From assembly GCA_965223415.1 (NCBI GenBank), contig OZ245002.1, positions 448,001 to 512,000 of the forward strand: a stretch of DNA of 64,000 bases. Reading direction: 5' to 3'. Origin of the DNA: Myxococcota bacterium. GTDB taxonomy: Bacteria > Myxococcota_A > UBA9160 > UBA6930. Made by a program: the position numbers and the translations under genes. Under the pieces are notes generated by a model, which was given only the letters and a program-made list of their open reading frames with translations, made no database searches and had not been told where the DNA came from. Of this stretch, positions 12,908 to 22,240 are shown piece after piece. Position 1 is the first letter of the stretch. Each line of letters opens with the position of its first letter.

Positions 12908-14266
12908 GTGGACGAGCGTCAGGCCCAGGAGCGACTCGCGAGGCGGCTGCGGGGGATGGGACTCGAGGTCGAGATCCTTCCCGGCGGGCGCTGTGTGCGC
13001 GGGGTGCTCCCGCTGGGCCCGGAGCCGTTGCTGACGCCGTCTGGGCCCTTCGCCGCCGCGGCGGTGGAGTTCGCCAGCGTCGGCCCCCAGCGCATCAAAT
13101 GCCTGCGGCCGGCCGCCCTCTTCCAGCTACCGATCGTCTCGATCGCGGGCTGCGGCGACGCGATCGAGCTCGAGGGACGGGTGCGGGCGGCCTGGATCGA
13201 TCACATGGCCCACCTGCGGACCGCCCGCGACGTGCTCGACGCCGGCGGGGTCGAGCACGAAGGCGAGTGGCACGATGCGGGGCTGGCCGTCGCCATCCAC
13301 CAGGATCCCCCCGATGCCCGGGCCCGTTGGGTGGCGAAGCGCACCCTCTCCCTGCCCTCTCCCGGACCGCTCGCGGGCCGCGCCCTGGCGGCGCCCGCCG
13401 AGCGGGTGGTCGAGCTACCTGCAGAGGCGCGCTCCGCATCCGAGATCGAGCTCGCGGTGGGCGCCCGCCTCGAAGCCCTGGGGCGTCAGCTCGACGAGCG
13501 CGACGAACGCCGGCGGCGGCGACACGCCCACGAGGGCGAGCCGGGTGTGCCCCAGCCCCTCCACCCGGTCTTTCGCGGCCGGGACCGCGACGTGCTGCTG
13601 GTCGGCCCCCAGCTCTCCCAGGAGTTCGAGCTCCAGGGCGCCCTGCGCCAGCGCGGCTTCCGTTCCACCCTGGCCCGGGGCGCCGACGCGGCGCGGGCTG
13701 CCTTCGACGAGAGCTCCTTCGAGGTGGTCGTGGTGGATGCAGTGCTCGATCGCGCCGAGGGCCTCGAGCTCATCCCGACCCTCGCCGACGTGCCGGGCAT
13801 CGGCGAGCTGCCGGTCGTGCTGATCGACGACCGGGCCCGCGAGAGCCGCCGGGAGGCCGCCCGCGCGTTGGGCGCCGCCGGCTACCTGGTCCGGCCCCTC
13901 GACGCCCAACGGCTGGCGGCGGGCCTGGAGAGGCTCGTCACCGAGCGCCCCCAGCGGCGCTTCGACCGCTTCTCCCACAAGCTGGCGGTGGCCTGGGAGG
14001 ACGGCTGCGACGGCTTCACCACGGTGGTCGGTCGCCGCGGCCTGTTCGTCTCCACGCCGCGCCCGAGCCCACCGGGCGCTCTCGAGAAGGTCGAGCTGGC
14101 GCTTCCGGAGACGGGCGAGCGGGTCTCGATGGACGTCGAGACGCTCTACCGGGTCGAGGCCCGAGGTGGACGCGACGCAGGCATCGGGGTGCGCATCCGC
14201 GCCTTCCCCGACGACCACGAGACACGCTGGATCGACTACCTGACGGCGCTGGAACGGCCCGGCTGA
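12908..14266 (+). CDS. Unknown N-terminal domain + receiver domain + PilZ-like domain
   Basis: REC-like FEVVVVDAVL...LGAAGYLVRP; C-terminal QRRFDRF (RxxxR) and GLFV...GIGVRI PilZ-like barrel. Confidence 0.7.
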   Translation: MDERQAQERLARRLRGMGLEVEILPGGRCVRGVLPLGPEPLLTPSGPFAAAAVEFASVGPQRIKCLRPAALFQLPIVSIAGCGDAIELEGRVRAAWIDHMAHLRTARDVLDAGGVEHEGEWHDAGLAVAIHQDPPDARARWVAKRTLSLPSPGPLAGRALAAPAERVVELPAEARSASEIELAVGARLEALGRQLDERDERRRRRHAHEGEPGVPQPLHPVFRGRDRDVLLVGPQLSQEFELQGALRQRGFRSTLARGADAARAAFDESSFEVVVVDAVLDRAEGLELIPTLADVPGIGELPVVLIDDRARESRREAARALGAAGYLVRPLDAQRLAAGLERLVTERPQRRFDRFSHKLAVAWEDGCDGFTTVVGRRGLFVSTPRPSPPGALEKVELALPETGERVSMDVETLYRVEARGGRDAGIGVRIRAFPDDHETRWIDYLTALERPG

Positions 14267-14588: not shown

Positions 14589-15809
14589 TCATGCGTTCCG
14601 AGCGGCATCCTCGGCGGCGCGCACGATCTCGGCGAGGGGCCGATCGGCCCGGCGCGCCGCGCGCTTGCAGTCGTCGTACTCGGCAGAGACCTGGGTGCTC
14701 CCGTCCGGCGCCGTCACGTACTTCACCCGGATGGAGCCGAAGGGCGTGTCCACGGAGCGCACCTCCCGGGGCAGGACCAGGCGATCGGCCTCCACGCTGC
14801 GCACCCCCAGGCTCCCGGTCACCGCGAGCAGGCGGCTCGCCAGCGGGACGCGGCGGGCGGGCGTGGTGAGCACCCGCAGCAGGAAGCCGGGCCGGTTCTT
14901 CTTCGTCTGCACGTACTGCAGGGAGACGTCCAGGGCGCCGGCGGCGAGGAGCTCGTCCATCACGTGATCGAAGTGCTCGGGCACGAGGTCGTCGAGGTTG
15001 GCTTCGAGGCACACCACCCGGTCCGCTCCGCCGCCGCTCTCGCGTCCGACGACGACGCGCAGCACGTTGGGCAGTGGCCCTTTGCGGTCGTTGCCCGCAC
15101 CGTGACCGATCGACTCGACGGTCATGGCGGGCAGGCCCGTGAACTCGTCCGCCAGCGTGCGCAGGATCGCGGCGCCGGTGGGCGTCACCGTCTCCCACCG
15201 AACGTGGGCCGGCACCGTCGGCACGCCCCGCAGCAGCTCGAAGGTCGCGGGGGCCGGGAGCGGCAGGCGGCCGTGCTCGGTCTCGACGGTGCCCTCGCCC
15301 AGGGCGACGGGCCCGACCGTAACCCGCTCGATCGCCATGGCGTGGACGGCGATCGCCGCGCCGGCGATGTCCACGATGGCGTCCACCGCGCCGACCTCGT
15401 GGAAGTGGACCTTCTCGACGGGAATGCCGTGCACCCGTGCCTCGGCCTCCGCCAAGGCCGCGAAGATCGCCTGGGCGCGGTCGCGCACGGCGGCCTCGAG
15501 CTTGGCCGCATCGAGGAGCCGGCGGATCGCGGCGTAGTGCCGGTGGTGGTGGTGACCGTGGCCGCCCTTCGCCCGGGGCTTCGGCACCTTCACGTCGACG
15601 TAGGGCGCCGCCAGGGCGCCGCGCTTCACCTTCTTCACGACCAGTCGGTGCGCGACGCCGAGCCCGGCGAGCCCTTCGCCGAGCTTCCGGCGCGGCAGCC
15701 CGGCATCGAGCATCGCGCCGAGGAACATGTTGCCGGCGGTCCCCGAGAAGGGGTCGAGATGGAGGACGCGCCGGCCCGCCACCGGTGCACCGGTCTTGCG
15801 CCGCGCCAC
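14589..15809 (-). CDS. larC: Nickel pincer cofactor nickel insertase LarC
   Basis: DPFSGTAGNMFLGA, His-rich GHGHHHHRH, VHFHEVGAVDAIVD, TPTGAAIL, EANLDD, AEYDDC. Confidence 0.92.
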   Translation of the reverse strand: MARRKTGAPVAGRRVLHLDPFSGTAGNMFLGAMLDAGLPRRKLGEGLAGLGVAHRLVVKKVKRGALAAPYVDVKVPKPRAKGGHGHHHHRHYAAIRRLLDAAKLEAAVRDRAQAIFAALAEAEARVHGIPVEKVHFHEVGAVDAIVDIAGAAIAVHAMAIERVTVGPVALGEGTVETEHGRLPLPAPATFELLRGVPTVPAHVRWETVTPTGAAILRTLADEFTGLPAMTVESIGHGAGNDRKGPLPNVLRVVVGRESGGGADRVVCLEANLDDLVPEHFDHVMDELLAAGALDVSLQYVQTKKNRPGFLLRVLTTPARRVPLASRLLAVTGSLGVRSVEADRLVLPREVRSVDTPFGSIRVKYVTAPDGSTQVSAEYDDCKRAARRADRPLAEIVRAAEDAARNA

Positions 15810-15811
15810 GC

Positions 15812-16567
15812 TCAGAGCCGATTGATCAGGGTCGCCACCGTGGCGGCGCCGAAGCCGTTGTCGATGTTCACCACGGTCACGTTCGATGCGCAGCTGTTGA
15901 GCATCGCGAGCAGCGCGGCGATCCCACCGAAGGAGGCGCCATAGCCGACGCTCGTCGGCACGGCGATCACCGGCTTGTCGACCAGGCCACCGACCACCGA
16001 GGCGAGAGCGCCCTCCATGCCGGCGACGGCGACGACCACCCGTGCGCTGCGCAGAAGCCGGCTCTCGGCCAGGAGGCGGTGCAGCCCGGCCACGCCGACG
16101 TCGGCGAGGAGCTCCACCTTGTTGCCGAAGCGCCGGGCCACGCTGGCCGCCTCCCGCGCCACGGGCAGGTCAGAGGTGCCCGCACAGACCACGGCGATCG
16201 TGCCCTTGCCCTGGATCTCCACCTCGGCCGGGCCGTACCAGAGGAGCCGGGCGTCCGGGTCGTACTCGCCGCCGGGCAGGAGGGCGAGCACCTCCTCCGC
16301 CGCGTCGGGCTCGATGCGGGTGGCGAGCGCCGATTGGCCGGCCTGGGTGAGAGTGCGGGCGATCTCGGCGACCTCCGCGGCCCGCTTGCCCTGGCCGAAG
16401 ATCACCTCGGGCAGCCCCTGCCGCAGGGCCCGGTGCACGTCGACCCGCCCGGCCCCGGACGGCGTCTCGATGATCGGCGGGTGGGCGAGCGCCTCGAGGG
16501 CCTCGTCCGTGTCCAGCTCTCCGCGCCGAACCGCCTCGAGCAGGGCGCGCGCGCGTTCTCGCTCCAT
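15812..16567 (-). CDS. larB: Nickel pincer cofactor biosynthesis protein LarB
   Basis: PEVIFGQGK, AGTSDLPVA, DVGVAGLHR, PTSVGYG, VNIDNGFGAA. Confidence 0.93.
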   Translation of the reverse strand: MERERARALLEAVRRGELDTDEALEALAHPPIIETPSGAGRVDVHRALRQGLPEVIFGQGKRAAEVAEIARTLTQAGQSALATRIEPDAAEEVLALLPGGEYDPDARLLWYGPAEVEIQGKGTIAVVCAGTSDLPVAREAASVARRFGNKVELLADVGVAGLHRLLAESRLLRSARVVVAVAGMEGALASVVGGLVDKPVIAVPTSVGYGASFGGIAALLAMLNSCASNVTVVNIDNGFGAATVATLINRL

Positions 16568-16588
16568 CCAAGCAACGTTAGCCGAGAT

Positions 16589-16661
16589 GTGAGACAAGGG
16601 GACGTTCCTTTCTGTCTCACGGCTTTGCCGTGAGACAGAAAGGAACGTCCCCTTGTCTCAC
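16589..16661. repeat. REPIN-like palindrome, family A, copy 1
   Basis: Perfect 35-nt arms GTGAGACAAGGGGACGTTCCTTTCTGTCTCACGGC with loop TTT. Confidence 0.92.
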
Positions 16662-17240
16662 TCAGTCGACGAGGCGGTCTGGCACGTAGACGAGCAGGCC
16701 GTGGATCTCGCCGTCTCGGTCGGCGATCTCGGTCTCGATGCGCAGGGCGGCCGGGGCGGCGTGGGGTGTGAGGCGCTCGGCCAGGACGGCGCCGGCGTCG
16801 CGGAGGACCAGGTCGGGCACCGAAGGCAGCACCACCGCGCCGGTGGTCTCGCCGATGGACGAGGCGACGTGGGAGACGAGGATGTTGCCCAGCTCGCGGA
16901 GCGCGGATTCGGCCATCTCCCGGTCGACGGGGCGCCCGCCGGTCAGCATGTCGACCAGCCGGTCGCGGACGTCGCCGGGGAAGATCAGGGCGAGGTAGCC
17001 ACCGGGCCCGCCGTGGAGCTCGAAGAAGACGCCCATGCGATCGGGGCCCTCGGCGTCCGCCACGATGAAGGGCTCGGCGAGACGCTGGGCAGTGAGGACC
17101 CGCACCGTCGGGACCCGCATGGAGCAGGGGCGTCCGGTCATCGCAGCGAGCGCGTTGGCGGCGTGGCCGGCGCCGATGCTGGTGAGCTCGCGGATGCGAT
17201 CCACCTGGGTCTCGTCGAGCTGCTGGGAGAGGTCGGTCAT
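16662..17240 (-). CDS. cheC: CheC-family phosphatase (DifG-like)
   Basis: ELTSIGAGHAANAL and ELGNIL motifs; last gene of the che cluster. Confidence 0.85.
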   Translation of the reverse strand: MTDLSQQLDETQVDRIRELTSIGAGHAANALAAMTGRPCSMRVPTVRVLTAQRLAEPFIVADAEGPDRMGVFFELHGGPGGYLALIFPGDVRDRLVDMLTGGRPVDREMAESALRELGNILVSHVASSIGETTGAVVLPSVPDLVLRDAGAVLAERLTPHAAPAALRIETEIADRDGEIHGLLVYVPDRLVD

Positions 17241-18909
17241 GCCAGCTGGTTCACGTCGAGGAGGAACACGGGACAGCCGTCGCCGAGGACCGTCAGGCCG
17301 GCGAGCAGACGCGCGCTGGCCAGGAGCCGCGGCACGGGCTTGACGTAGATCTCCTGCTGGCCGGCCAGGTGCCCGACGCGCAGGCCGACGCGTTCGCCCC
17401 GGACCTCGGCCAGCACGAGGGGGCTCGTGCCGCCGTCCTCCTCATGGGTCGGGAAGCCGATGCGGCGGGCGAGGTCGAGCACCAGCACCGGCTCGTCCTC
17501 CACCAGGCAGAACTGCTCGCTGCCGGCCACCTCGATGGCGTCGGCGGCGACCTCGACCACGCGCTCGACCTTCGCGATCGGCACCGCCACGGTCTGGCCG
17601 CCAGCGCCGACCAGCAGCACGCGCTGGACGGCGGCGGTAATCGGCACGACGAGGGCGGTCGTCGTGCCCAAGCCGGGGCGGGAGCGCAGCTCGACCCGTC
17701 CGCCGAGGGCCTCGATGGTCGCCTTCACCGCGTCCATGCCGACGCCGCGCCCGGACACCGTCGACACCTCGGCCGCGGTGCTGACCCCGGGCCGGAACAC
17801 GAGCGAGGCGATCTCGTCCGGCGGGAGATCGTCGGCCAGGTCCTCGTGGAGCACGCCGGCGTCGATCGCGCGGCGCTTCACCGAAGCGAGATCGATGCCG
17901 CGGCCGTCGTCCTCCACCGAGATCAGCACCTGGTCCTTCTCCCGCCGGGCCTCGACCACGACCCGGCCCGAGGGCGGCTTGCCCACCTCCCGGCGCGCCT
18001 CCGGCTCCTCGAGCCCGTGGTCGACGGCGTTGCGGACCAGGTGGACCAGGGGATCGCCGAGCCGATCGAGAATCGCCCGGTCCAGCTCGAGCTCGGCACC
18101 CCGGAGCTCGACGTCGACTTCCTTGCCGGTGGACCGCGCGATCTCCCGGGCCATGCGCGGCAGCGCATCCATCACGCGCAGGAGCGGAGCCGTGCGAAGC
18201 GAGAGGGCGCGGCGCTGGAGATCGCCGACCACCCGCTCCATGCGATCGAAGCCGGCGCCGAGGGTGGGGGCCATCGCCGAGTCGCCCGTACCCTCCGCCG
18301 TCGAACGCAGATGACTCGAGCTCAGGATCACCTCGCCCACAGAGGCGAGGAAGCGGTCCAGGGTCTCCGTGCGTACCCGGACCGAAGGCGGCGGCGCGCT
18401 CGAGATGACCGGGGTGGGTGCACCCGCCGCAGCTCCCGCCCCGGCCTCGGGCGCTACGACGTCGCCGCTTTTTTTGGGTCCGGCTCCGGCGGCAGCTCCG
18501 ATGCGGGAGCGATCTCCGATTCCTGCGCCGGGTCGACCGCCGCGCCGAGCCTGTCCAGGAGCTCCGGGTCGGGCGGAGAGGGCTCGCCCTGGGCGCGGAT
18601 CGCCCCGACCATCGCCTCGAGGCCCTCGAGACCCGCGAAGAGCAGCGCCGTGCCGGCCTCGCCCGCCGGCACGACACCGGCGGCGCGGAAGCGATCCATC
18701 ACGTCCTCGAGCTTGTGGGCGAGCTCGGTGATGGCGTCGTAGCCGAGGGATCCCGCCATGCCCTTGATGGAGTGGGCCATGCGGAACACCTCGTCGATCG
18801 CTTCGCCGTCGCCGGGCGCCTTCTCGAGGACGAGGAGCGCCCTGCTCATCTCGGCGAGATGATCCGTCGCCTCTTCGAGGAAGAGCGCCCGGTACTTGGC
18901 CAGGTCCAA
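17237..18909 (-). CDS. cheA: CheA histidine kinase (DifE-like), split by a -1 frame change at an A7 run (18469-18475)
   Basis: Hpt domain (FRMAHSIKGMA) in 18454..18909; dimerisation, HATPase (HLVRNAVDHG, SGRGVGMD) and CheW domains in the -1 frame. Confidence 0.9.
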
Positions 18910-18948
18910 GGCTCAGCTCCCTTTGCCGTCCGTCTTGGGGCCCAAGGC

Positions 18949-19317
18949 CTAGCCTTCCTTCTCGAGCACCTTGGCGAGCGTCGTGAGCACGGCGTCGGGC
19001 TTGAAGGGCTTCACGATGAAGTCCTTGGCGCCGGCCTGGATCGCCTCCATGACCAAAGTCTCCTGCCCCAGCGCACTGCACATCACCACCGTGGCGCCGG
19101 GATCCTCTGCCTTGATGGCCTTCACCGCGTCGATGCCCGAGCGCTTGGGCATGACGATGTCCATCATGACCAGGTCGGGACGCAGCTCCAGGAACTTCTC
19201 CACGACTTCGACGCCGTCGGACGCTTCGCCCACCACCTCATAGCCTTCGGGCTCGATGATGTCGCGAATCATCTGCCGCATGAAGGACGCGTCGTCGGCA
19301 ACCAGAACCCTCTTCAT
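18949..19317 (-). CDS. cheY: CheY-like response regulator (DifD-like)
   Basis: MKRVLVADD...MMDIVMP...FIVKPF. Confidence 0.93.
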   Translation of the reverse strand: MKRVLVADDASFMRQMIRDIIEPEGYEVVGEASDGVEVVEKFLELRPDLVMMDIVMPKRSGIDAVKAIKAEDPGATVVMCSALGQETLVMEAIQAGAKDFIVKPFKPDAVLTTLAKVLEKEG

Positions 19318-19814
19318 GTCGTTCCCCCGTGGGTTGGCTCGCTGGCGCCATTCGCCACCGAGTTCGAGATCACTTCCGCCGCCCGCTCGAGCAGGCGTTT
19401 CGGATCCAGCACGCTGACCATCCGCCCGTCGAGAGGGCGGCGCTCCGCCACCGGGTCCGCCTCCAGGGCGTGAGCCGGCGGCCCGTCGATCAGCCCCAGG
19501 ATGCGGTCCACCGGCACGCCGTAGCGGTCCGGGTCGTCCGGATCCTTGGCCAGGATCAGGAGCGGCCGTTCGATCGGGTAGCGCGAGCGATGCGCACCGA
19601 AGAGCGCGTCGCCGAAGACGATGGGCACGGCGTCGCCGTGGTGGTTCACGACGCCGCCCACCCGATGGTGCACCATCGGCACCGAGGCGAGCTGGTCGAG
19701 CTCGGCCACCTCGGCGACGTCGGCGATGGGCAGGGCGTAGAGGGCATCGCACAGCTCGAAGGCGAGCAGGCGCTCGCTGAGCTCCATGGGAGGGATCTGG
19801 GGGGGCGCGCTCAC
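19314..19814 (-). CDS. cheW: CheW-like coupling protein (DifC-like)
   Basis: [36 protein letters not shown]; lies between the MCP and cheY. Confidence 0.78.
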
Positions 19815-21112
19815 GAGGCGTCCGGGTCCGAGCCAGTGCGGAAGCGCCCGACCATTCCGGTGAGATCGCCGGACAGCTCCGCGAGGGAAGCCGAGGCTTC
19901 GGTCATCTCGCCGACGGCCTCCTGCTGGCGATGGGCCAGCTCGGCCACCTCCTCCACCGCGGACGCGTTCGCCAGGGAGACCTTCGCCACCTCGTCCATC
20001 GACTCGACCATGGTCTCGGCGTCGCGGGCCTGGTCGTCGGCCTGCTGGAAGATCTCCTCGGCGCGGCCGGCGGCCTCCCCCACGGCGGAGCGGATCTGCT
20101 CCAGGGAGGCGGCGATCGTGTTCACGTCCTCGCGGCCCTCGGAGATCATCTGGCCGGATTCGCGCATCTCGTCGGCCACGCTCTGGGTATCGGTCTCGAT
20201 CTCGCCGACGAGCTTCGAGATCTCCTCCGCGCTGCGGGCGGCGCTCTCGGCGAGCTTGCGGATCTCGTCGGCGACCACCGCGAAGCCGCGCCCGGCCTCA
20301 CCGGCCCGCGCCGCCTCGATCGAGGCGTTCAGGGAGAGGAGGTTGGTGCGCGACGCCACGCTCGTGATGATCTCGGTGATCTGGTGCACGTGCCGGGTCT
20401 TGGCTTCGAGCTGGAAGACGTTGCCCCCCGAGTGCTCCACGCGCTCGAACACGCTGCGCATCTTCTCGATCGCGAGCCGGGACACGTCGACGCCGGCGTT
20501 GGCCTTCTGGTTCGCCTCGGCAGCGAAGCCGAAGGCCTCGCGCGCGCGTGAGGCGTTCACCTCGATGGCCGACGCGATGTGATGGATCAGGCGCGTCACG
20601 TCGCCGAGCAGCTTCTGCTGCTGGCTGGCGCCCTTGGAGATCTCGGACAGCGTGGAGGTCATGTCTTCGGCCGAGGTGTGAACGCCGTTCACGGCGCCGC
20701 GCAGGGTGTCGACGCCGCGATGCACCTGCTCGGCGTTGTGCTGGATGCCAGCCATCACCTCGCCGAGAGCGCGCACGGATTGCGCCATGTTGCGGGCGAG
20801 CTCGCTGCTCTCGTCCGGGAAACGGCCGGCGGGAACCTGGGGGAACTCGCGCAGATCCCCGGCGACGATGCGCTCGGACAGCTCCAGCACCGGACGGTAG
20901 CCGCCGGCGATGCGCGCCGAGAGGCGCCACGCCAGCACCCCGCCCGCTCCCAACGCGAGGAACGGACGCGCCCACGGCGCCATGGGAATGCCGCCCTGCT
21001 GGACCAGCCAGGGGATGAGCAGCACGACCCCCGCGACCAGCATCGAGCCGATCGCGACCTTGTGCGAGAGGGAGAGCCTCACACCCCCGGGTATCGGCCT
21101 CCCCGCGCGCAT
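19811..21112 (-). CDS. Methyl-accepting chemotaxis protein (DifA-like, almost no periplasmic domain)
   Basis: Two closely spaced TMs; [35 protein letters not shown]; exact start uncertain. Confidence 0.92.
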
Positions 21113-21211: not shown

Positions 21212-22153
21212 TCAGAAGTGCTGCCAGCCGGCGCGTTCCGGGTCGGGCCCGCGGGCGCCGACGAGCTCGAGGCCCCCTCGGGCGAGGACGCCGACCGGCG
21301 TCAGCGGCTCGCTCGCCCGCATCTCCGGCGGCAGCACGACGGGAGCGGAACCCCGCACGCTGAACAGGAGTTCGTAGTCCTCCCCGCCCCCGAGCAGGAG
21401 CGATTCCGCATCCACGCCAGCGCCCTTGCAGGCCCGGTCGAATCCGGCCGGGCGCGGCAGCGCCCCGACGTCGAGACGGGCGCCGGCGTCGGAGGCCCGG
21501 CACAGATGGGCGAGGTCAGCGAGCACGCCGTCCGAGACGTCGATGCAGGCGCTGACGCGCCCGGTCCAGGCCAGCGCGCGGCCCAGGGCGATGCGCGGCA
21601 CCGGCACGTGCTGCACCCGGCCCTGCACGCGCTCGAGGGCCGACCGGCCGAGGGTGCCGGAGACGTAGAGGCGATCGCCGGGACGACCGCCGGCCCGCCG
21701 CAGGGCCCGGCCGCGGGTCACGGCGCCGAGGGCGGTGAGGTGGAGCTCGAGGCCAGGGCCCGCCGCGACGTTGCCGCCGACGAGCGGACAGGCGTGCTCG
21801 GCCGCCACCTCCAGGGCGCCGCCCACCAGGGCGAGCAGCACCTCGACCTCCCGCTCTGGGGCGGCCGATAGCGAGAGGGTGAAGCCGAGCGGCCTGGCCC
21901 CCATCGCCGCCAGGTCCGAGAGGGTCGCGGCCAGGGCCCGCCCCCCGGCCGTGGCCGGCGTCTCGTGGTCGAAGCGGAAGTGCACGCCTTCGACGAAGGC
22001 ATCGGCCGTGACCGCCACGTCCTCGCCGGTCCTGGCTCGAAGCAGCGCCGCATCGTCGCCGATGCCCAGGGCCACCCCGCCCCCGCGGACGCGCCGGGCC
22101 TCGCGCTCGATGCGCTCGATCAGCCCGAACTCTCCCAGCTCCCGCAGCTCCAC
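21212..22153 (-). CDS. thiL: Thiamine-monophosphate kinase
   Basis: GEFGLIERI, GIGDDAA, SDLAAMGA, DVSDG, GGEDYEL. Confidence 0.95.
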   Translation of the reverse strand: MELRELGEFGLIERIEREARRVRGGGVALGIGDDAALLRARTGEDVAVTADAFVEGVHFRFDHETPATAGGRALAATLSDLAAMGARPLGFTLSLSAAPEREVEVLLALVGGALEVAAEHACPLVGGNVAAGPGLELHLTALGAVTRGRALRRAGGRPGDRLYVSGTLGRSALERVQGRVQHVPVPRIALGRALAWTGRVSACIDVSDGVLADLAHLCRASDAGARLDVGALPRPAGFDRACKGAGVDAESLLLGGGEDYELLFSVRGSAPVVLPPEMRASEPLTPVGVLARGGLELVGARGPDPERAGWQHF

Positions 22154-22167
22154 CCCACGAGTGTAGG

Positions 22168-22240
22168 GCGAGACAAAGGGACGTTCCTTTCTGTCTCACG
22201 GCGGAGCCGTGAGACAGAAAGGAACGTCCCCTTGTCTCAC
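22168..22240. repeat. REPIN-like palindrome, family A, copy 2
   Basis: Same 73-nt palindrome with 2 substitutions in the left arm, loop GGA; contains the lon stop codon. Confidence 0.92.

Follow-up and report, generated by a model that had tools for sequence, protein, structure and literature searches.

The gene for the chemosensory kinase CheA in this genome of a Myxococcota bacterium is interrupted by a change of reading frame at a run of seven adenines, and this break is almost certainly a real, conserved programmed recoding site. The gene is located in a window of 64,000 nucleotides (contig OZ245002.1, positions 448,001 to 512,000), which is the whole stretch of DNA that was analysed, and it extends on the minus strand from 18909 to 17237, spread over two frames. 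At the break the minus strand reads GAG CCG GAC CCA AAA AAA GCG GCG ACG TCG TAG. The reading that is favoured here, with moderate confidence, is that a -1 slip at A_AAA_AAA allows one mRNA to yield both a free 151-aa Hpt protein, likely an extra phospho-acceptor, and a 557-aa kinase.

A Pfam domain search identified a dif-like operon of five genes on the minus strand, coding for an MCP, CheW, CheY, CheA and CheC (Table 1). ORF and Pfam searches bore out what an earlier note on this DNA had assigned from its letters: frame 0 holds the 151-aa Hpt ORF and the -1 frame the kinase domains, with H-kinase_dim, HATPase_c and CheW following each other up to the stop at 17237. The predicted full-length CheA has 557 aa (147+410 aa) and contains the core domains P1, P3, P4 and P5 (by Pfam), the phospho-histidine and the ATP-binding motifs (by motifs across loci), while no P2 domain was detected in it by the Pfam search. 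The AlphaFold model of ORF1 is a helical bundle (pLDDT 86) with a tail that is disordered after about residue 132; as predicted, the short product comprises an entire P1 bundle, His46 included, and this disordered tail.

Table 1. Features of the cheA recoding site and of the surrounding operon; positions are those of the window.
Feature	Position	Strand	Evidence or remark
ORF1 in frame 0, Hpt/P1 alone, 151 aa, TTG start	18454..18909	-	Pfam Hpt PF01627, residues 6-106, E 1e-19
Phospho-acceptor His46 of ORF1	codon 18774-18772	-	comparison with CheA P1 structures
SD-like GGAG, candidate 5' stimulator	18484..18487	-	8 nt upstream of heptamer; -5.8 kcal with the genome's anti-SD
Slippery heptamer A_AAA_AAA (CCA AAA AAA, Pro-Lys-Lys), A7 run	18469..18475	-	in frame 0 in 109/109 loci with the -1 layout
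Near hairpin, stems of 9 bp and 4 bp, candidate 3' stimulator	18425..18461	-	-23.4 kcal; 7 nt after run; holds the frame-0 stop
Frame-0 stop TAG, made up of TA from the rare -1-frame Val codon GTA and the next G	18454..18456	-	
Distal stem, alternative fold overlapping the near hairpin, less conserved	18407..18446 (18446-18435/18418-18407)	-	
-1 frame: Ala/Pro linker, P3 dimerisation, P4 ATPase, P5 CheW; 410 aa past the shift	17237..18469	-	
cheC, difG-like phosphatase	16662..17240	-	ATG overlaps the cheA stop (ATGA)
cheY, difD-like response regulator	18949..19317	-	domain search; DifD specificity residues
cheW, difC-like	19314..19814	-	domain search
MCP, difA-like: two N-terminal hydrophobic stretches, without a large sensor domain	19811..21112	-	

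By its gene types and its CheY residues the operon can be classed as Dif-type, with the arrangement MCP-CheW-CheY-CheA-CheC and a DifD-type receiver. The Dif system of Myxococcus xanthus (DifA, C, D, E and G) has the same five gene types in one operon, and His46 would correspond to His47 of DifE. Compared with the specificity residues of DifD given in the part of PMC4671073 covered here, CheY agreed at 5/5 primary and 5/7 secondary positions, counted by eye with an offset of 1. Unlike in the M. xanthus system, epsW was not found in this genome, which is 97% complete; fliG and pilB are present. Another 60 genomes of the phylum gave no DifD-like CheY at E 1e-36 in a search that was run without a positive control. 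The neighbours of the operon are larB-larC (nickel pincer cofactor genes, 14589-16597) on one side and thiL (21212-22153) on the other, and the gene order thiL-mcp-cheW-cheY-cheA-cheC-larB is kept among the relatives compared, the sister order included. Pairs of palindromic repeats, apparently dispersed inverted-repeat units of this genome, are located just past cheC (16600-16660) and just ahead of thiL (about 22150-22200). Elsewhere in the window, a gene adjoining groEL (12908-14266, plus strand) encodes a protein of 452 aa whose receiver domain is degenerate and whose C-terminus weakly matches TIGR02266.

Orthologues were collected from 41 related genomes (best 30 loci), GTDB contigs (75 loci), a sample of the phylum (40 stretches, 13 of them paralogues) and metagenomes (52 loci). 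Duplicate and part-missing loci were dropped (20 and 7 in one genome scoring round, 7 and 2 in the other, 3 and 14 among the metagenome loci). Order-level orthologues had both parts present, with more than 55% identity in the genome set and 58-100% identity in the catalytic part. The -1 break at an in-frame A_AAA_AAA was found in 107 of 119 such orthologues (78/85 genome loci and 29/34 metagenome loci), and continuous, run-less orthologues are not the rule, so that the -1 programmed shift to a free Hpt and a 557-aa CheA, as it had been proposed in the earlier note, fits the comparative evidence. The other 12 comprise six fused genes without the run and six variants. Among the genome loci, five were fused without the run, one (L122) is in frame with an A10 and one (L123) requires a +1/-2 shift; among the 34 metagenome loci, four require +1/-2 and one is fused. 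The 78 genome loci carry A7 (43), A8 (12), A9 (10) or A10 (13); one of them, L082, has an assembly gap and was assigned by eye. Break and run were also present in 2/6 loci of the sister order. The run is in the single phase that gives X_XXY_YYZ at each of the 63 A7 loci that have the -1 layout, and A_AAA_AAG was used by none of the 109 loci with this layout, although kinship inflates all these counts, the phase argument for A7 included.

Outside this group, all 20 paralogous or distant cheA genes were continuous without a break, as were 20/21 scored cheA loci in the phylum of a Geobacteraceae genome, where six loci carry an in-frame A7 or A8 by chance in DNA of lower GC content; a plasmid search gave distant cheA only. 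A distant cheA (L153, G462:C5) breaks by -1 at G_GGA_AAG, where its Hpt is followed by a P2-like region; it was rejected as an independent frameshift because a 99% identical relative has an open frame of 721 aa, and it is probably an isolated indel.

When a tree was built from the catalytic part, each fused form branched on its own within a break clade, which indicates that the fused protein is the functional kinase; from this distribution the recoding site seems to have been present in the ancestor of the order and to have disappeared several times through fusion. The linker of one fused cheA (L026) reads Lys-Ser-Gly-Asp with AAG and resembles the predicted transframe junction of the window locus; it is possibly a fixed relic of the recoding site. 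At the single locus L122 (G238:C165), cheA is in frame, the A10 is retained and a stop in the -1 frame follows five codons on, so that both products would still be made, in a layout that is reversed as in E. coli dnaX. The short product has 125-192 aa across loci, and the site is always located in the linker past a complete Hpt. Of 120 stand-alone ORF1 homologues from the protein database, where they are annotated as 'Hpt domain-containing protein', 111 have Lys-Lys within the last 25 residues.

Several features of the sequence around the run point to selection for recoding. A stop in frame 0 follows within 15 nt of the run in 80% of the 80 genome loci, compared with a background of 10.3%. In 56/80 loci this stop is a TAG formed from the rare -1-frame codons CTA or GTA; in the catalytic region, TAG made up 43/612 of such off-frame stops and CTA 38/3,506 of the CTN Leu codons. 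From the run onwards the -1 frame is open for 395-497 codons in 79/80 loci, the exception being L082 with its assembly gap. At L013 and L017, flanking stops restrict the shift to a 15-nt box that contains only the run. The GC3 values past the run (0.78 vs 0.81) did not favour the -1 frame, and this linker test did not discriminate. The codon context is unusual for this 5.83-Mb genome of 71% GC, which has no more than 15 A/T runs with a length of at least 7 nt. The observation that Lys is nearly always encoded by AAG held in 2,947 long ORFs, where AAA accounts for 781/26,020 Lys codons (3%) and none of 931 Lys-Lys pairs is read as A_AAA_AAA. Apart from the cheA run, no A6-[AG] run in the genome joins two long frames of high GC3 by -1. 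Genes for both tRNA-Lys(UUU) and tRNA-Lys(CUU) are present. Six of the 15 long A/T runs belong to a repeat that is at least 50 nt long, identical from copy to copy and similar to an insertion-sequence end (contig positions 489144, about 41144 in the window, 2137564, 3287668, 4049085, 4607629 and 4768306).

In the proposed mechanism, two tRNA-Lys(UUU) on AAA AAA would regain full pairing after moving into the -1 frame, the ribosome perhaps being held meanwhile by an SD:anti-SD duplex and by the hairpin 7 nt ahead. The use of AAA instead of AAG would be explained because AAG would be read by tRNA-Lys(CUU), which is expected to be unable to re-pair on AAA. Ribosomes that do not slip would meet the stop four codons after the run and release the free Hpt, and those that slip would make the Hpt-P3-P4-P5 kinase. 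Surplus P1 might then be phosphorylated in trans by array-bound kinase, and the free Hpt could buffer phosphate or ferry it to the DifD-like CheY and other regulators. As the start of cheC overlaps the kinase stop in 50/79 break loci and 8/9 fused loci, only shifted ribosomes would reach the cheC start, and the slip rate would set the level of the kinase and, via the ATGA overlap, probably also that of CheC. A link between loss of cheC and the fused forms was considered and rejected, both BLAST misses having kept an ORF of CheC size at this place.

That the free Hpt is functional is judged to be somewhat better than an even proposition. A role as phospho-acceptor in trans is favoured because liberated Hpt/P1 is functional and extra Hpt can offset the lack of a P2 domain (Berry et al., PMC10782961, citing others). 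The run has disappeared from at least six lineages, which produce CheA in fused form only, so that the free Hpt is dispensable there. The main rival is a pure dosage role, in which the -1 ribosomal shift merely throttles the kinase and the coupled CheC relative to MCP, CheW and CheY, and the Hpt is a trimmed by-product. This is rather unlikely, but several observations agree with it: run-less fused forms arose repeatedly, cheC is commonly overlapped by the kinase stop, and an early stop would also be selected merely to avoid a junk tail. Against it, a throttle has no need for a site that always lies past a complete Hpt, L122 has retained its run and nearby -1 stop despite being in frame, and a weak start would be a cheaper solution.

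The elements around the heptamer were compared across loci. Pairing with the anti-SD peaked, family-wide, in windows that end 5-7 nt before the heptamer, with 45-50% of loci at -5 kcal or below at the peak and 2-12% at positions further upstream. The resulting SD-like spacing is 6-8 nt, and Glu and Gly codons may partly account for the motif. At the window locus the GGAG noted earlier is indeed present 8 nt upstream of the run (18487-18484); its role as stimulator is less secure, as the spacing is under the 9-14 nt given for internal SDs of -1 shifts (PMC5009743). Downstream of the run, folding reached a mean z of -1.8 in windows from +4 and was near 0 upstream and from +20. In a clade of 16 loci, a 9-bp hairpin 13 nt after the run is 97% paired with nine two-sided changes, a result that was as high in 0/500 shuffles and above all slid controls, with the reservation that the structure was picked from the same sequences and that kinship can inflate covariation.

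The near hairpin of the window locus is the consensus fold of four sequences of the genus and is modest when taken alone (z -0.8 to -1.6). Its start at 7 nt falls inside the range of 5-8 nt downstream at which 3' stimulators begin, as described for insertion sequences, where A_AAA_AAA is among the two commonest heptamers (PMC4066793). The earlier note had considered the more distal stem instead. This stem exists, 22 nt away, with 11/12 pairs, one of them G-U, and a z of -2.6 in isolation, but it overlaps the nearer hairpin and folds differently in 2/5 genus members (L003 and L005). The 3' stimulator is therefore probably not the distal stem, and the near hairpin (18461-18425) is the probable candidate.

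Whether the extra product arises from the ribosome or from the polymerase may differ between loci. If RNA polymerase slipped on the A7 and added one A, a fraction of the mRNAs would encode full CheA for normal reading by the ribosome. For the window locus this is improbable. Efficient transcriptional slippage is cited for runs of 8-9 (PMC1088944; PMC3711429), a length that the window's A7 falls below and that 34 A9/A10 relatives reach. The window combines the A7 with an SD and a hairpin at ribosome-type spacing and has no third-frame stop close by, so that a -1 ribosomal shift is the best reading there and, from these features, a very probable one. The phase held by every A7 locus with the -1 layout also argues against slippage.

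The longer runs are different. In the genome set, the SD was found at 41/56 and the hairpin at 42/56 A7/A8 loci, compared with 5/24 and 2/24 A9/A10 loci, whereas a third-frame stop within 15 nt was present in 22/34 A9/A10 but only 7/75 A7/A8 loci (background 3.8%). Because the stimulators are mostly absent and a third-frame stop is present, transcriptional slippage is suggested for the A9/A10 relatives, in line with Thermus dnaX, where stops are placed in both non-productive frames (PMC1088944; PMC5009743). With kinship handled, the link between run length and stimulators remained no more than suggestive (5.3 same vs 0.3 opposite in 10 independent pairs, median p 0.06). Run length compared with SD, hairpin or third-frame stop gave the same direction without significance (6 pairs; 10 pairs), and the hairpin alone was not significant either in the independent-pair test (3.2 same vs 1.6 opposite).

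A strict -1 model leaves five +1/-2 loci in or near one clade unexplained (L123, L177, L183, L190 and L193). In these the run is in the Hpt-P3 linker with TGA two codons past it; four of the five could be placed on the tree and form one clade (support 84), which fits a phase-blind process such as slippage. L123 and L183 have an A7 one base off the usual phase, an SD of -10 kcal and a hairpin. This arrangement would allow a fully paired -2 slip, and the two loci are candidates for a bacterial -2 frameshift, or for slippage. A wider proposal, that recoding throughout this uncultured, Myxococcota-related order sets the stoichiometry of kinase and free Hpt, with repeated switching between ribosomal and slippage mechanisms and one clade that moved to -2 (or +1), is put forward tentatively, at somewhat less than even confidence.

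Two separate genes, one for a free Hpt and the other for a kinase that lacks Hpt and starts independently, as in the bipartite CheA3/CheA4 of Rhodobacter, are a very improbable explanation. Such CheAs have been reported (PMC10782961) and relatives of ORF1 are annotated as stand-alone proteins, but a conserved start codon for the kinase part was not found. The absence of ATG, GTG and TTG in the -1 frame between run and P3 motif, noted before for the window locus (L001), was confirmed and is shared by 38 of the 75 loci in which the P3 motif could be recognised; this speaks against a kinase with a start of its own. The other 37 have some such codon, but only 8 have an ATG, and the positions are scattered. 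In addition, none of the 80 genome loci has a -1-frame stop between run and P3, whereas upstream of the run this frame closes within 12-60 nt in 10 of them, and a split gene would not need an invariant in-phase A run.

The run itself is an A7, and not an A8, as had been noted: 18475-18469 was exactly matched in public-run contigs from two samples (X1, depth 9.4; X2, depth 78.6), which cover 18000-19000 with 0 differences and 0 gaps, although both samples are from one study and either is possibly the source of the present assembly. A 151-nt contig from a second study (X5) covers 18382-18532 with no difference. Since the A7 is identical in contigs from two samples and in the piece from the second study, and the break is conserved across genomes, a sequencing error at the run is excluded. 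Homopolymer error, pseudogene formation or DNA-level phase variation together have a negligible chance of accounting for the break, for although the assembly is a single contig of long-read type, contig pieces of the low-depth run X4 (2-2.7) stop at the run and one A10 locus is in frame, the frame offset is equal in the 107 orthologues whatever the run length (7-10), just one run is in frame and the catalytic motifs are intact, with G boxes in 77/80 loci.

The closest parallel to the recoded cheA is dnaX, which has an A-rich heptamer at a domain boundary, an SD-like motif, a hairpin and a nearby stop, gives a short and a long product from one gene, and apparently uses both mechanisms within one family (PMC5009743, PMC3711429, PMC1088944). 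In E. coli the -1 shift takes place at A_AAA_AAG with SD and hairpin, in T. thermophilus slippage occurs on an A9, and Chlorobi have a two-ORF dnaX. Unlike dnaX, which codes for a replisome subunit, cheA codes for a signalling kinase, the shift gives the long, essential product, the heptamer is A_AAA_AAA and the SD is closer (6-8 nt). Conserved chromosomal recoding that frees an N-terminal domain is also found in the magnesium (cobalt) chelatase gene chlD, in copA and in csoS2; the chelatase uses A_AAA_AAR, and its A7 gives 10% in an E. coli reporter (PMC3711429; PMC5009743). However, none of the three is chemosensory or two-component, and the short form is the shifted product in E. coli copA and in csoS2. 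IS3 orfA/orfAB shares the A_AAA_AAA, the short default product with a fusion made by the shift and a stimulator 5-8 nt downstream (PMC4066793), but cheA is a non-mobile core gene with conserved synteny. In split CheAs (R. sphaeroides CheA3/CheA4; Berry et al. 2023), Hpt and kinase are likewise on different polypeptides and phosphorylation occurs in trans. Here, in contrast, a single gene would supply both: a kinase that, by prediction, still carries an Hpt of its own, and the free Hpt as the additional species. The short form of CheA in E. coli arises from an internal start and lacks the phospho-histidine; the predicted free Hpt is its complement.

Recoding of cheA was found in no title or abstract in full-text literature searches, in which most subscription journals are outside the coverage. 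The main text of Antonov 2013 (PMC3711429) contains neither 'chemota' nor 'histidine kinase', and its supplements could list such a cluster; the portion of Atkins 2016 that was searched has no 'CheA' or 'chemotaxis'; and 'frameshift' is absent from the text of Berry 2023 (PMC10782961) covered here and from a term search of its three supplements, cases of a separate Hpt being read there as bipartite. The mechanism is known in kind from dnaX, IS3, the chelatase and copA, and its use in a chemosensory kinase appears to be new.

Few non-mobile genes of bacteria are known to be recoded in a conserved way (prfB, dnaX, copA, csoS2 and the chelatase), and cheA would be added to them; the literature searches gave no example from a cheA or any two-component kinase. 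The ratio of free P1 to kinase, set during decoding, would be a new control point for chemosensory signalling, and the ratio of the kinase to the CheC phosphatase is probably set in the same way. The free Hpt would be a natural counterpart to the experiments with liberated P1, and, going by the present case, single recoded genes may lie behind some 'bipartite CheA' annotations. With over a hundred natural A7-A10 cassettes, with and without stimulators, the question of ribosome or polymerase becomes directly testable. If the switching throughout the order is true, cheA would be the first recoded two-component kinase and would provide a natural series in which one recoding mechanism becomes another.
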